In this document: positions 9,430-10,837 of the stretch, in pieces
Layout of the letters: every line of letters starts with the position of its first letter
How positions within the stretch are numbered: position 1 is the stretch's first letter
Assembly (NCBI GenBank): GCA_001823165.1
Contig: MHTT01000015.1
Location: 1 to 39,254, forward strand
Source of the DNA: Candidatus Wildermuthbacteria bacterium RIFCSPHIGHO2_01_FULL_49_22b
GTDB taxonomy: Bacteria; Patescibacteriota; Minisyncoccia; Minisyncoccales; UBA10102
DNA length: 39,254 nt
Direction: 5' to 3'
Program-made: the position numbers and the translations under genes
The notes under the pieces: model-generated
Databases searched by the model: none
What the model was told of the DNA's origin: nothing
The model's input: only the letters and a program-made list of their open reading frames with translations

Positions 9430-9469
9430 AAAAAAATAAGGCGCCAGAGCTCAAAAGAGACGGCGCCTT
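9430..9469 (-). terminator. Intrinsic terminator closing the RT-associated RNA
   Basis: Stem aaggcgcc (9438-9445)/ggcgcctt (9462-9469), followed on the minus strand by A and U7. Confidence 0.8.
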
Positions 9470-9485
9470 GTGATTTTCCCCGTTG

Positions 9486-9726
9486 GGGCCAGAGTTCCAG
9501 ACAAGACCTCCCCTATTCTCTGTCCTGCCTTCCGGGCAGGAAGCGGGCCACTGAGGACGCTCCGGGCGAGCTGGCGGCCACACACCAGGCCAGGAGGAAG
9601 AAGAGAATCCTTCTTCAGGGGACATGCAATCCGCTTTGAGCGGAGCATCCCTATCTCCCGTCACATGAGTGGCGAGAGGACTCAGCGGTTGAGAACAGGA
9701 AAACCCAGTCAAAAGAACTCTGGCCC
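9486..9726 (-). ncRNA. Putative retron-like msr-msd ncRNA (primary transcript about 9776 to 9430)
   Basis: Perfect 12-bp inverted repeat gggccagagttc (9486-9497)/gaactctggccc (9715-9726) enclosing at least 5 hairpins; no credible ORF; immediately downstream of the RT. Confidence 0.7.
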
Positions 9727-9782
9727 GTATGCTCTCCAGATGCCTTTAAGGGGCGCTAAAGAGCACGAGGCCCGCTACTTTT

Positions 9783-9811
9783 ACTATACCAAAGAAAAAG
9801 AAAGACACCAA
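9783..9811 (-). promoter_or_regulatory. Putative promoter for the ncRNA
   Basis: Extended -10 TGG-TATAGT (TATAGT at 9783-9788) and weak -35 TTGGTG at 17-nt spacing. Confidence 0.55.
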
Positions 9812-9819
9812 GCTCTGTT

Positions 9820-10770
9820 TTACACAGGTGCTGGCGCCTTGCGCTGTTCGCGCTTCGTTTGCCCAATCAATCGACGGAACCGCTTGCATTGTCGCAAAAC
9901 CCTTTGCTCGCTTGCAGTGGGCTTACGCTGATTCACGATGCCCAGGACCACCGACATTGCTCCTTGAATCTTGGGCGCAAGAGAAAGGTCTCCTTTCAAG
10001 CCCTCGTGGAGCAATCCTCGCACATGCCGCAGATAGAAGGGTGGGACAAAGACCCTGCCACCCAGTTCCAACCCAATGCCGTTAATAACAAGCGTGCTTT
10101 TTTGCAGGTCATGCGTCTGAGACTTGAGGTGGTTAACCTTAAAACCAGCGCTGGCAATGATGGCTCTCACCTGCGCGCGTACCCTTCTACTCACCGTAAT
10201 GTTTCCAGAAATGGTGAGGTCATCCACATAGCGCGTGTAGATTAAGCCGTGCTGGCGACACAGATTCCCAATCTTTTCATCAAGAAGCACTGCGCAGTAG
10301 AGATTAAAGAGATCGGGAGAGGCGGGGGCTCCTGCGGGCACTCCTCCTGTTTGGGACATGCAGTAGCGCTGAAGGAAAGCCCTGACTTCCCAGAACTGTC
10401 CTTTGAGCCGAGGGTCTGCCTGATGGAGCACGCTCGCTAACTTCCCAACCTGCACACTCTGGTATGCGCGGCGGAGATCCAGCAGGCAAAAGAACCTGCT
10501 TTGCCGATGCCGTTCCACGTTCTTCAAGGGAGAATCTCCGGGCCGGCATGCCGTTGCATAAGGCATCTCAACCTTAAGCGAGCGCAGGTATTTAATGAGC
10601 CGTCCATGGATGATGCGCATTGCATTGTTCGGCGCTTCCAGGGGGCGGCGCCCCTTTTCTCTCTTACTCAAAGGGTTTTTGTCCCTGATGGCAAAGATGC
10701 GAAACGCTGGAGTCCCTCCGAGGAGGGCAGGGTTTAGCTCAAATCCGAGAACCAAGTTTTCAAAGGACAT
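9820..10770 (-). CDS. Retron-like reverse transcriptase
   Basis: Motifs RRPLEAP, CRPGDSPLKNVERH (NAxxH-like region X), LLDLRRAYQSV, GVPAGAPASP, YTRYVDDLTISG, GFKVN and LVINGIGL (VTG-like region Y). 316 aa with no maturase or endonuclease domain; strong SD AAGGAGG. Confidence 0.88.
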   Translation of the reverse strand: MSFENLVLGFELNPALLGGTPAFRIFAIRDKNPLSKREKGRRPLEAPNNAMRIIHGRLIKYLRSLKVEMPYATACRPGDSPLKNVERHRQSRFFCLLDLRRAYQSVQVGKLASVLHQADPRLKGQFWEVRAFLQRYCMSQTGGVPAGAPASPDLFNLYCAVLLDEKIGNLCRQHGLIYTRYVDDLTISGNITVSRRVRAQVRAIIASAGFKVNHLKSQTHDLQKSTLVINGIGLELGGRVFVPPFYLRHVRGLLHEGLKGDLSLAPKIQGAMSVVLGIVNQRKPTASEQRVLRQCKRFRRLIGQTKREQRKAPAPV

Positions 10771-10837
10771 CTTCTCCTCCTTCCTTGGGAGTACTTCTGA
10801 GGGCTCTATATCACAAAAGAGAAGTTGTGCAAGGTCT

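Follow-up and report, generated by a model that had tools for sequence, protein, structure and literature searches.

An effector-less retron-type reverse transcriptase and a candidate relocatable RNA gene from Patescibacteria

Within a 39,254-nt stretch of Candidatus Wildermuthbacteria DNA (contig MHTT01000015.1, hereafter the window) we found a reverse transcriptase (RT) gene that is directly followed on the same strand by a gene for a structured non-coding RNA (ncRNA). Our preferred reading, which we hold to be probable, is that positions 9430-10770 (minus strand) encode a Patescibacteria-specific, effector-less RT of the retron type together with an independent RNA gene that can be relocated relative to the RT. 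Both would form a two-gene accessory cassette in which a minimal RT of the retron clade is paired with a dedicated ncRNA of ~345 nt. The family-wide pattern suggests a minimal two-part RT-RNA system that is so far undescribed. A first-pass annotation, made from the sequence before our analysis, had proposed a CPR host; the record indeed belongs to a Patescibacteria/CPR lineage, which it shares with the related records. According to the consulted part of PMC8632793, diversity-generating retroelements dominate among the RT systems of CPR bacteria, such that the cassette would add a second kind. An RT and a covarying RNA that are kept under selection across several CPR lineages without an effector raise the question of what such a pair does alone. 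At 316 aa plus ~345 nt and with a predicted action in trans, the pair is compact and directly testable in E. coli, and it could be of interest for retron-based DNA-production tools.

The RT is encoded at 9820-10770 (minus strand) by an open reading frame of 316 aa; the protein carries the catalytic motif YVDD and matched the Pfam profile RVT_1 with an E value of 2.2e-17. The frame as well as the motifs NVERH, YVDD and INGI, all reported by the first-pass annotation, are present in the translation. In a PADLOC search the best 25 of the 61 matched families were all retron RT models, with RT_II-A at the top (112.8 bits). The three highest-scoring NCBIfam families were likewise retron families; no type-specific cut-off was reached, retron_St85_RT scoring 106.7, far under its curated cut-off of 235. 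Among the PDB matches, 14 of 15 were named retron RTs. The best one was the RT of retron Ec86 (E 2.1e-17), which aligned across residues 22-280. The earlier proposal of a retron-type RT thus agrees with the best matches in PADLOC, NCBIfam and PDB. In the alignment with Ec86, NVERH corresponds to NATPH, with V in place of A, YTRYVDD to YTRYADD, and VINGIGL to KVTGLVI. The NAXXH motif and the VTG triplet are named as marks of retron RTs in the consulted part of Mestre et al. 2020 (PMC7736814). At the position of the triplet the window RT carries ING and the RTs of loci L007 and L008 carry ITG. The glycine (G231) is invariant in five RTs; D183, D184, N84 and H88 are equally invariant in five RTs at 35-57% identity. 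By its sequence the window RT is retron-type.

Three other RT classes were considered and rejected. For the UG/Abi lineage (DRT2, DRT3) the NCBIfam models Drt2 and Drt3a gave 35.2 and 30.5 bits, far under their cut-offs of 390 and 200, and DRT or Abi RT chains were absent from the PDB matches at E ≤ 0.01. A group II intron is disfavoured by a score of 31.1 bits for group_II_RT_mat (cut-off 300) and by the absence of Rfam intron matches in the window. A diversity-generating retroelement was dismissed, as the 584-kb genome contains the 376-nt RNA region only once and the region 8550-11050 holds no long direct repeat. With regard to domain content, 48 of the 49 homologues that are similar in length have RVT_1 as their sole domain. 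Fusions of the RT with a DnaG zinc ribbon were rare and confined to a side branch of the homologues, and a search for fused homologues of at least 554 aa returned none.

Downstream of the RT and on its strand we obtained a structured unit of ~345 nt at 9430-9776, in line with the earlier proposal. Its extent follows from fold and family membership: the start is predicted near 9776 and the end at the last U of the terminator. A stretch of 361 nt folded at -168.9 kcal/mol, compared to -133.9 ± 7.2 kcal/mol for shuffled sequences (z = -4.84). None of the 100 shuffles folded as well as the native sequence. Ahead of the predicted start, the extended -10-like element TGGTATAGT is found at 9783-9791. 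The promoter had been called at this element, which is present but was not flagged by a consensus scan (0 promoters), because it has no -35 box. A TAnAnT-like box in locus L097 sits at the same distance from the leader AAAGTAGCGGGCC as in the window. This leader is common to the window RNA, which lies downstream of its RT, and to the L097 RNA, which lies upstream. At the other end (9430-9469), the minimum-free-energy (MFE) fold contains an intrinsic-terminator-like hairpin of 9+3 bp (9438-9469) followed by a U run down to 9430. The terminator assigned there earlier therefore stands with respect to hairpin and U run but was left unflagged by the consensus terminator scan, which gave none on the RNA strand because the loop exceeds the scan's size limit. 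The ncRNA gene probably possesses its own predicted -10 promoter and terminator. A separate transcription unit is plausible from the sequence, since the -10 box and the leader are common to upstream-type RNAs and since L016 has a clear terminator after the RT stop.

The predicted fold of the RNA is nested (all coordinates on the minus strand). A 5' leader hairpin, P0 (9729-9766 in the MFE fold), stands ahead of the closing stem and has analogues in L016, L017, L097 and L098. The outer closing stem P1, which resembles the a1/a2 stem of retrons, joins a 5' strand at 9714-9726 to a 3' strand at 9486-9498. The perfect 12-bp inverted repeat described before (9486-9497/9715-9726) was recovered independently in an inverted-repeat listing and becomes 13 bp long in the MFE fold (9486-9498/9714-9726). 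L016, L017 and L096 keep the P1 pairing with a different sequence, and the same three loci also contain P2, which extends the closing stem by pairing 9691-9710 with 9500-9520 in the MFE fold. The inner closing helix P3 is formed by CCGCUGAG (9681-9688) and CUCAGUGG (9548-9555); it is seen in the MFE fold and as the motif yUGAr / CUCAGC that is conserved in the RNA family. Between the 3' strands of P3 and P2 the MFE fold places a further hairpin, P7 (9523-9541), and a hairpin occurs at this position in L016 and L017 as well.

P3 encloses three hairpins. P4 (9655-9678) is the most conserved element of the RNA according to covariation and to the covariance model R3 (see below). P5 (9617-9652, MFE fold) is extended in the window and has a purine-rich loop with CAAA, where most relatives have GAAA. 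It is followed by the polypyrimidine tract UUCUCUUCUUCCUCCU (9592-9607), a hallmark of the family: runs of 10 or more pyrimidines were found at this position in 31 of 47 family RNAs versus 12% of 940 control windows. In several family members the CU tract is partly base-paired as the 5' strand of P6. The latter hairpin (9560-9596, MFE fold) is variable within the family and is a candidate msd-like template. Among the aligned family RNAs the length of the P6 region varies, with inserts of up to ~90 nt, and in some relatives P6 comprises only ~11 nt. The first-pass annotation had listed five hairpins, four of which (9655-9678, 9617-9652, 9597-9616 and 9523-9541) are contained in the MFE fold, whereas 9679-9710 forms no hairpin but contributes the 5' strands to two nested closing helices. 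We found no support for its further suggestion of a branched or multi-stem cDNA with G9710 as branch point. G9710 is paired in the MFE fold and its position is unconserved; an invariant unpaired G beside the closing helix was not found in the window clade.

The closest relatives of the window system are L016 and L017, with RT identities of 59% and 56%, both of which have closing-stem RNAs downstream of the RT. The window RNA, the RNAs of L016 and L017 and the upstream RNA of L096 share the MFE architecture P1-P2-(P3[P4,P5,P6])+P7, with stem sequences that differ between the four. At the level of primary sequence, blastn aligned the window RNA with the region downstream of the L006 RT at 84% over ~42 nt (E 7.6e-5), and nhmmer with the window RNA gave no match in the first 11 loci. 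Conservation of the pairing was seen in two alignments, with the caveat that CM-fitted alignments are biased toward the model structure: in A5, 89.8% of the cells were paired versus at most 51.2% with the partners slid, with 244 versus at most 66 double-change cells, and in A8, 92.4% were paired versus at most 57.6%, with 234 versus at most 57 double-change cells. The outer helices covary in A5, and P5 covaries in both alignments (helices 7-8 of A5 and 2-3 of A8). For P4, 95.3% of the cells were paired in A8, and a MAFFT-only alignment revealed compensatory changes in 8 of its 9 pairs. For the window clade the outer helices rest on the comparison of MFE folds together with A5 and not on a dedicated model.

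Of the covariance models, R1 was built from four upstream-type RNAs with the window RNA left out, while R2 and R3 describe the core of P3(5'), P4 and P5 alone, R3 being the leave-one-out version without the window. Models lacking the window sequence detected the window RNA weakly. R1 gave no full-length match on it, its best hit having 8.8 bits and lying at the P4 hairpin on the opposite strand. R3 had P4 as its sole match in the whole window (15.3 bits, E 0.021). The R2 match of 29.3 bits holds by construction, the window sequence being in the seed. Over 74 sources, 54 of 57 R2 matches were located beside an RT and on its strand, and in a whole-genome search of four RT-bearing genomes the RNA was matched only beside the RT. 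The downstream RNA of the first-pass annotation is real, conserved and linked to the RT, in that a covarying family adjoins the relatives of the window RT. Within the order, matches at E ≤ 0.001 occurred in 2 of 151 genomes, the window genome (G000) and G136. The match in G136 was weak (26.8 bits), the RT profile found nothing in that genome, and we discarded it as a probable chance hit. The 158-nt spacer upstream of the RT (10771-10928) contains a GGAGG ribosome-binding site and no match to the RNA family: R1 with filters off produced low scores only (at most 7.5 bits) and no full-length match, and R2 and R3 no match. This spacer had been given as ~67 nt, a value that holds only when a 47-aa ORF at 10838-10981 is counted. 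That ORF is unconserved, and the real gap to the permease stop amounts to 158 nt.

Rfam includes an msr model. A scan of the window against Rfam at the gathering threshold and at E ≤ 10 returned no meaningful match; what it did return were chance-level matches of eukaryotic families to the RAYT palindrome and, at E 7.2, one lncRNA model. Membership in an unrelated Rfam family, which would have spoken against the earlier proposal, was thus not found, and the structured RNA family is new relative to Rfam. One may still ask whether the RNA is a housekeeping or cis-regulatory RNA that has nothing to do with the RT, for example the 5' leader of the next gene or a RAYT-transposase-linked element. 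Its own promoter-like box and terminator would be compatible with such an origin, and so would the RAYT gene with REP-like palindromes that lies directly downstream. The terminator, however, ends the RNA before the RAYT gene, L016 and L017 carry the RNA without a RAYT, and across unrelated contexts the RNA tracks the RT and not the neighbours. Moreover, only 2 of the 151 genomes searched in the order have a match, and congeners lack the RNA at the corresponding site. This explanation is largely refuted and we consider it very improbable.

We next turn to the position of the RNA gene. Of 64 non-redundant related loci, 26 have the RNA upstream of the RT, 12 have it downstream and 2 on both sides; in the other 24 it was undetected. 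Several loci carry two tandem copies. Where an RT has two RNA genes, P4-P5 are conserved and the flanks differ. In the RT tree the CPR clade has an SH-aLRT value of 99, and the window RT together with L016 and L017 is sister to L096 (support 99), which has the upstream RNA order at the same permease-flanked site as the window. The downstream order requires at least 4 changes on well-supported branches. There is a second downstream-type clade in which the RNA starts 31-64 nt past the RT stop; between RT and RNA of L007 neither a terminator nor a promoter was found, and the RNA may be a 3' UTR there. The gene order of the window had been described as rearranged. This is correct insofar as the upstream order is commoner in relatives, but it is not a one-off: both orders as well as tandem copies recur CPR-wide. 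The RNA gene would accordingly be pictured as a self-contained movable module, placed upstream, downstream, on both sides or in tandem in relatives. Given such relocatability, the RT most likely acts on the RNA in trans.

An effector gene was sought in the neighbourhood of the RTs. The 67 loci examined contain 820 ORFs of 70 aa or more, and their largest cluster of neighbour genes, a housekeeping-like ATPase, extends over 5 loci. The largest cluster among 1012 small ORFs came from 4 loci that are close relatives, and it overlies the RNA. The system had been called effector-less before, which is borne out by the 67 loci, across which no neighbour gene, large or small, is conserved. The RAYT gene was rejected as effector, since neither of the homologous loci L016 and L017 has it. 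With no effector gene in the system, the RT-RNA(-cDNA) complex would be the functional unit or would work with an unlinked partner. Of 401 genomes of the order, 12 have the RT. In 3 of 3 genomes of the same genus the acylphosphatase gene comes right after the permease gene, and neither RT nor RNA lies between them. From this patchy, indel-like distribution, a role in phage defence would be the most likely one for the cassette.

The same patchiness, the cassette-free congeners and the missing effector would also be expected for a decaying or orphaned retron, functionless since the loss of its effector, the relocation of the RNA being neutral scrambling. L017 fits such a decay, in that a piece of the 5' portion of the RNA stands there in place of the first ~40 codons of the RT. 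We judge it improbable, however, since the catalytic and retron motifs are invariant over the five RTs compared and the RT ORFs are intact at almost all related loci. In addition, numerous compensatory changes preserve the RNA helices in several candidate phyla, which calls for purifying selection.

Retrons are understood as three-part systems in which an RT-msDNA complex holds a toxin in check, and their canonical RNA consists of a simple a1/a2 stem, msr hairpins and a long msd hairpin. The window system resembles Ec86-type retrons in the sequence clade of its RT with NxxxH, YxRYxDD and the [VI][TN]G triplet, in a dedicated same-strand neighbouring ncRNA with terminal inverted repeats, in conserved 5' hairpins combined with a variable 3' hairpin, and in its patchy, accessory distribution. 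In contrast to them, the family has neither an effector gene nor a fused domain, its RNA gene is downstream in the window and positionally free in the family, and the window RNA possesses three nested closing helices, a three-way junction and the CU tract. P4 and P5 are compatible with msr-like hairpins and P6 is a possible msd, while P2, P3 and P7 are extra; a single long msd hairpin is not found in the window RNA. By analogy, we propose that the hairpins of invariant shape, P4 and P5, would be an msr-like platform for RT binding, that the conserved helix P3 would join the ends like a1/a2, and that the variable P6 with its pyrimidine-rich 5' flank would be the template for a short cDNA.

Systems without an effector gene are also known outside the retrons. 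DRT2 and DRT9 consist of an RT and a structured ncRNA of ~250-350 nt without a separate effector gene; their RTs belong to the UG/Abi class, the ncRNA lies upstream of the RT, and the cDNA itself is the effector. They share with the window the combination of an RT and a structured ncRNA without effector gene and differ in that the window RT scores as retron-type. A two-component system could nevertheless work by a similar, non-retron mechanism, with the RNA providing a scaffold and a repeatedly copied template and the cDNA being the effector, for example by copying the CU tract into a GA-rich repetitive cDNA or by template jumping across the P3-closed domain. Such a mechanism would agree with the lack of an effector in the 67 loci, with the enrichment of the pyrimidine tract after P5, with a nested non-canonical architecture that juxtaposes the ends of the inner domain, and with the loci where two RNA genes of common P4-P5 and different flanks serve one RT. 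Yet the RT groups with retron RTs (Drt2 35 versus 390, Drt3a 30.5 versus 200), DRT RTs do not appear among its PDB matches at E ≤ 0.01, and in several members P6 takes up part of the CU tract as its 5' strand. We regard this mechanism as rather unlikely.

The favoured cassette of a retron-type RT and a relocatable RNA can be taken further. Patescibacteria might contain widespread retron-derived minimal RT modules with an immune or housekeeping function, in which the RT serves one or two relocatable "cartridge" ncRNAs and the cDNA made in trans is the effector. The independently transcribed ncRNAs would share the RT-docking P4-P5 and differ in the variable template region, and the effector cDNA would possibly consist of GA-rich copies of the conserved CU tract. 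If the cDNA is itself the effector, no toxin gene is needed. This extension is speculative and we put it forward as a tentative possibility.

Stand-alone cassettes have precedents among retrons. The consulted part of Mestre et al. 2020 (PMC7736814) describes stand-alone (msr-msd)-RT cassettes in branches of the retron RT clades 2 and 11. Like the window system these combine a retron RT and an ncRNA without an associated protein, but there the ncRNA directly adjoins the RT and has the canonical shape; CPR hosts (Parcubacteria, Saccharibacteria) are not named in this part. The consulted part of a study of non-canonical type XI-like retrons (mSystems 2026, PMC13712802) similarly reports candidate msr/msd-like ncRNAs associated with retron RTs, which were predicted computationally with covariation in lineages without a canonical fused effector. 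These differ by recurrent accessory proteins, e.g. WYL, and by a three-stem-loop RNA flanked by a1/a2, and Patescibacteria or CPR are not mentioned in the paper. The literature searched on retrons in Patescibacteria, CPR and Saccharibacteria and on RT-downstream ncRNAs contained no description of the family, supplementary tables aside, and no precedent of a stand-alone retron with a known function.

Some minor observations complete the description of the locus. Tblastn of the RT against phages retrieved only distant retron-type RTs (identity at most 31%), and an Atlas search returned generic RVT_1 clusters. On the plus strand a 153-aa ORF (9470-9931) runs over the RNA; it was rejected as a gene, being unconserved in L005. 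DNA contigs from four runs showed strain variants and one weak joint that skips 8676-9391.

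The reverse transcriptase (RT) of the window, a 316-aa ORF on the minus strand (9820-10770), carries a Pfam RVT_1 domain (E 2.2e-17), the sole domain in 48 of 49 homologues of similar length. All profile rankings were led by retron RTs. With PADLOC the best 25 of the 61 families matched were all retron RT models (RT_II-A 112.8 bits, RT_III-A 100.3 bits, RT-Protease_XI 95 bits). Among NCBIfam models retron_St85_RT scored highest with 106.7 bits, against a curated cut-off of 235, followed by Retron_TIR (82.5 bits) and retron_Ec67 (70.9 bits) and, further down, by Drt2 (35.2 bits), the group II RT/maturase (31.1 bits) and Drt3a (30.5 bits). 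In a search against all PDB chains, named retron RTs accounted for 14 of the 15 matches. The best one, Ec86, covered residues 22-280 and placed its NATPH, YTRYADD and KVTGLVI opposite NVERH, YTRYVDD and VINGIGL of the window RT. From this ranking and the PDB matches the enzyme, judged by its sequence, belongs to the retron lineage outside every curated type, which bears out its first-pass annotation as a retron-type RT. No RT reaching 554 aa turned up, which is weak evidence.

The interval from the RT stop to the gene that follows (9385-9819) contains no ORF conserved among relatives. The RNA 3' of the RT (~345 nt, 9430-9776, minus strand), folded as a 361-nt stretch, gave -168.9 kcal/mol, compared to -133.9 ± 7.2 kcal/mol for shuffled sequences (z = -4.84; 0 of 100 shuffles were as good). 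Its perfect 12-bp inverted repeat (9486-9497/9715-9726), part of the original description, was recovered independently by a repeat search and forms a 13-bp outer helix in the fold. Of the five hairpins proposed within it, those at 9655-9678 (P4), 9617-9652 (P5), 9597-9616 and 9523-9541 (P7) are present in the minimum free energy fold, while 9679-9710 supplies the 5' side of two additional nested helices. G9710, which had been suggested as branch point, is base-paired in this fold. The proposed -10-like element TGGTATAGT (9783-9791) and the terminal hairpin with U run that ends the RNA unit (9430-9469), both on the minus strand, are there, though a simple consensus scan flagged neither. The 67 nt stated for the spacer 5' of the RT presuppose that a 47-aa ORF without conservation is a gene; up to the permease stop the spacer spans 158 nt, which gave no match to three covariance models of the RNA family (R1, R2 and R3). 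This hydrophobic ORF (10838-10981, minus strand) overlaps the 3' end of the permease gene and ends 67 nt short of the RT start. As tblastn of the related loci returned no homologue (best E 2.6), it is unlikely to be a gene. A 153-aa ORF antisense to the entire ncRNA (9470-9931, plus strand), not conserved in the related locus L005, is probably spurious. A 17-nt direct repeat (9462-9478/9833-9849, 82% identical, GGCGCCTTG... on the plus strand) brackets the ncRNA gene: one copy is located where the RT ORF ends, the other where the ncRNA terminator begins. It could be a scar of relocation or due to chance.

Related RTs were sought in the window's order, in species-representative genomes and in metagenome contigs. 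Within the order 12 of 401 genomes contained the RT (E ≤ 1e-10). The 73 related loci found in total are, by record title, nearly all from Patescibacteria (Saccharibacteria, Paceibacterota, Berkelbacteria, Kerfeldbacteria, Harrisonbacteria, Vogelbacteria, Parcubacteria), with a few labelled otherwise. The closest relatives, at loci L016 (=L005; 59% RT identity) and L017 (=L006; 56%), share the window's succession of permease, RT, a gap of ~400 nt and acylphosphatase. Their gaps fold into the architecture of the window RNA, with differing stem sequences and retained pairing: a long outer stem (P1, 9714-9726/9486-9498, and P2, 9691-9710/9500-9520, in the window) leads to a three-way junction, whose arms are the conserved helix P3 (9681-9688/9548-9555), enclosing P4, P5 and P6 (9560-9596), and hairpin P7. 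By blastn one RNA segment was alignable between the window and L006 (84% over ~42 nt, E 7.6e-5). At L096, whose RT is 51% identical and which is flanked by the same permease, and at L097-L101 the RNA lies upstream of the RT, where it was identified by a yUGAr...CUCAGC helix, the P4 hairpin, a GAAA-capped P5 hairpin and a CU-rich tract.

Four upstream RNAs seeded model R1, and 20 sequences were used for R2, which describes the P3(5')-P4-P5 core. R1 gave 38 matches, all on the RT strand, and R2 gave 57 in 390,739 bases, of which 54 adjoin the RT gene on its own strand. In the R1-fitted alignment 89.8% of the cells were paired versus at most 51.2% with the partners slid, and 244 versus at most 66 cells carried double changes; for R2 the corresponding values were 92.4% versus at most 57.6% and 234 versus at most 57. 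Model-fitted alignments are biased to their model, such that the slide controls and a plain MAFFT alignment, with compensatory changes at 8 of 9 P4 pairs, weigh more. Covariation in the RNA family is strong. In 31 of 47 RNAs P5 is succeeded by a CU tract of 10 or more pyrimidines, versus 12% of 940 control windows. The expected conserved RNA was found next to many homologous RTs, in both gene orders. R1 failed to recover the window RNA, and its R2 score arises by construction, the window sequence being part of the R2 seed. R3, built without this sequence, returned over the whole 39-kb window a single match, to the P4 hairpin on the correct strand (15.3 bits, E 0.021). The window RNA is therefore assigned to the family mainly because it is clearly homologous to the RNAs of L016, L017 and L096 and has their architecture.

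Gene order was counted over 64 non-redundant rows, after dropping seven duplicates and three loci in which the RT runs off the contig. The RNA was upstream of the RT in 26 rows, downstream in 12, on both sides in 2 and not detected in 24. L020, L021 and L023 carry tandem RNA genes at a spacing of ~300 nt upstream of the RT, and L027/L108 carries such a pair downstream; L034 has two upstream copies ~750 nt apart. In L022 a copy lies on either side of the RT, with near-identical P4-P5 and different flanks. In a quick maximum-likelihood tree the CPR RTs formed one clade (SH-aLRT 99), separate from 19 retron-like RTs of other phyla included for comparison. L096, with upstream order, was sister to the window RT, L016 and L017 (support 99), and well-supported branches forced at least four changes for the downstream state. 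In L017 the first ~40 RT codons are replaced by an old fragment of the RNA 5' part. A 13-nt leader just after the -10-like box, AAAGTAGCGGGCC, is common to the window (downstream) and L097 (upstream), and L016 has a strong terminator between RT stop and RNA promoter. Taken together, order changes, copies, fragment, leader and terminator point to an RNA gene that relocates as a whole, promoter included. The L017 region 5' of the RT (540-760) contains a promoter-like TTGACA...CATACT and a diverged P3(5')-P4 copy (78% over 45 nt to the downstream copy), whose reading frame is continuous with that of the RT from about residue 40 onward. This diverged copy may have been left behind by an upstream RNA gene or have arisen through recombination. 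In a second downstream clade (L041, L044, L114 and others) the distance from the RT stop codon to the RNA is 31-64 nt, and both may share a transcript.

Clustering of 820 neighbouring ORFs (≥70 aa, 67 loci) yielded no cluster present in more than five loci. The recurrent clusters, shared through local synteny, we take from their sequences to be housekeeping genes, putatively for an ABC-type ATPase, IF-2, tRNA synthetases and TatD. Among 1012 small ORFs nothing clustered except frames over the RNA itself in close relatives. The absence of an effector, already suspected from the window, extends to a partner gene of any size conserved among the neighbours in these 67 loci. On rare side branches the RT C-terminus is fused to a DnaG-type CHC2 zinc ribbon (PF01807; L049:2917-4164, E 2e-24, and protein P0046, E 1.4e-13). 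In L052 the sequence resembles an RT-YaaA fusion, perhaps because two separate genes are read as one.

A retron-like scheme is consistent with the lineage of the RT, the pairing of the RNA ends, two 5' hairpins of invariant shape and a variable 3' hairpin. Here P4-P5 would dock the RT, P3 or P1 would take the role of the a1/a2 repeats that close retron msr-msd RNA, and a short cDNA would be copied from P6 and its flanks. As the RNA gene is freely placed and doubled, the RT probably acts on the RNA in trans. Given that the loci hold no effector gene, the effector role may fall to the complex or its cDNA; alternatively, the partner may be unlinked. A non-retron mode of templating is a less likely alternative to the retron-like scheme, in view of the nested helices, of the CU tract and of the fact that no unpaired G is conserved in the RNA. 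For retrons, the searched passages of Mestre et al. 2020 (PMC7736814) give as defining features the NAXXH motif, the VTG motif, an msr-msd closed by a1/a2 and, in most cases, an effector; cassettes that stand alone are noted for clades 2 and 11. Those of a 2026 survey (PMC13712802) describe ncRNAs of type XI-like lineages in which WYL proteins occur as partners. Neither set of passages mentions CPR, and our literature search, covering main texts, found no description of a Patescibacteria RT-RNA family. The cassette is retron-like at the level of its parts but lacks the effector; msDNA, the retron cDNA, is a candidate product. We therefore filed it as a variant of retrons lacking an effector, not described in the literature searched.

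In four RT-bearing genomes all genome-wide RNA matches adjoin the RT. Across 151 genomes of the order E ≤ 0.001 was reached only by the window's own genome and by one weak match (26.8 bits), in a genome without any hit to the RT profile. The RT is absent from all three same-genus genomes, in which the permease is directly followed by acylphosphatase; the gaps between the two (~4, 288 and 160 nt) contain no RNA remnant. Given this cassette-free junction, 8642-10928 of the window is an accessory insert. The same 584-kb genome encodes a second retron-like RT (434 aa, contig C6, L002:538-1842, plus strand; retron_St85_RT 103.5 bits, below cut-off), followed by a DNA-3-methyladenine glycosylase I gene; R2 had no match at this locus. 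The sole Rfam or ARAGORN match in the window is a tRNA-Arg (CCG) at 12493-12566 (minus strand). A RAYT/IS200-like Y1 transposase gene (8677-9384, minus strand, within 8647-9424; Pfam Y1_Tnp, NCBIfam REP_Tyr_transpos) separates the ncRNA terminator from the acylphosphatase gene; L016, L017 and the genomes of the same genus have no such gene. One weakly supported contig joint skips 8676-9391. The transposase gene is bracketed by 25-nt palindromic hairpins (8647-8671 and 9397-9424), and a third copy lies inside the gene at 9201-9224.
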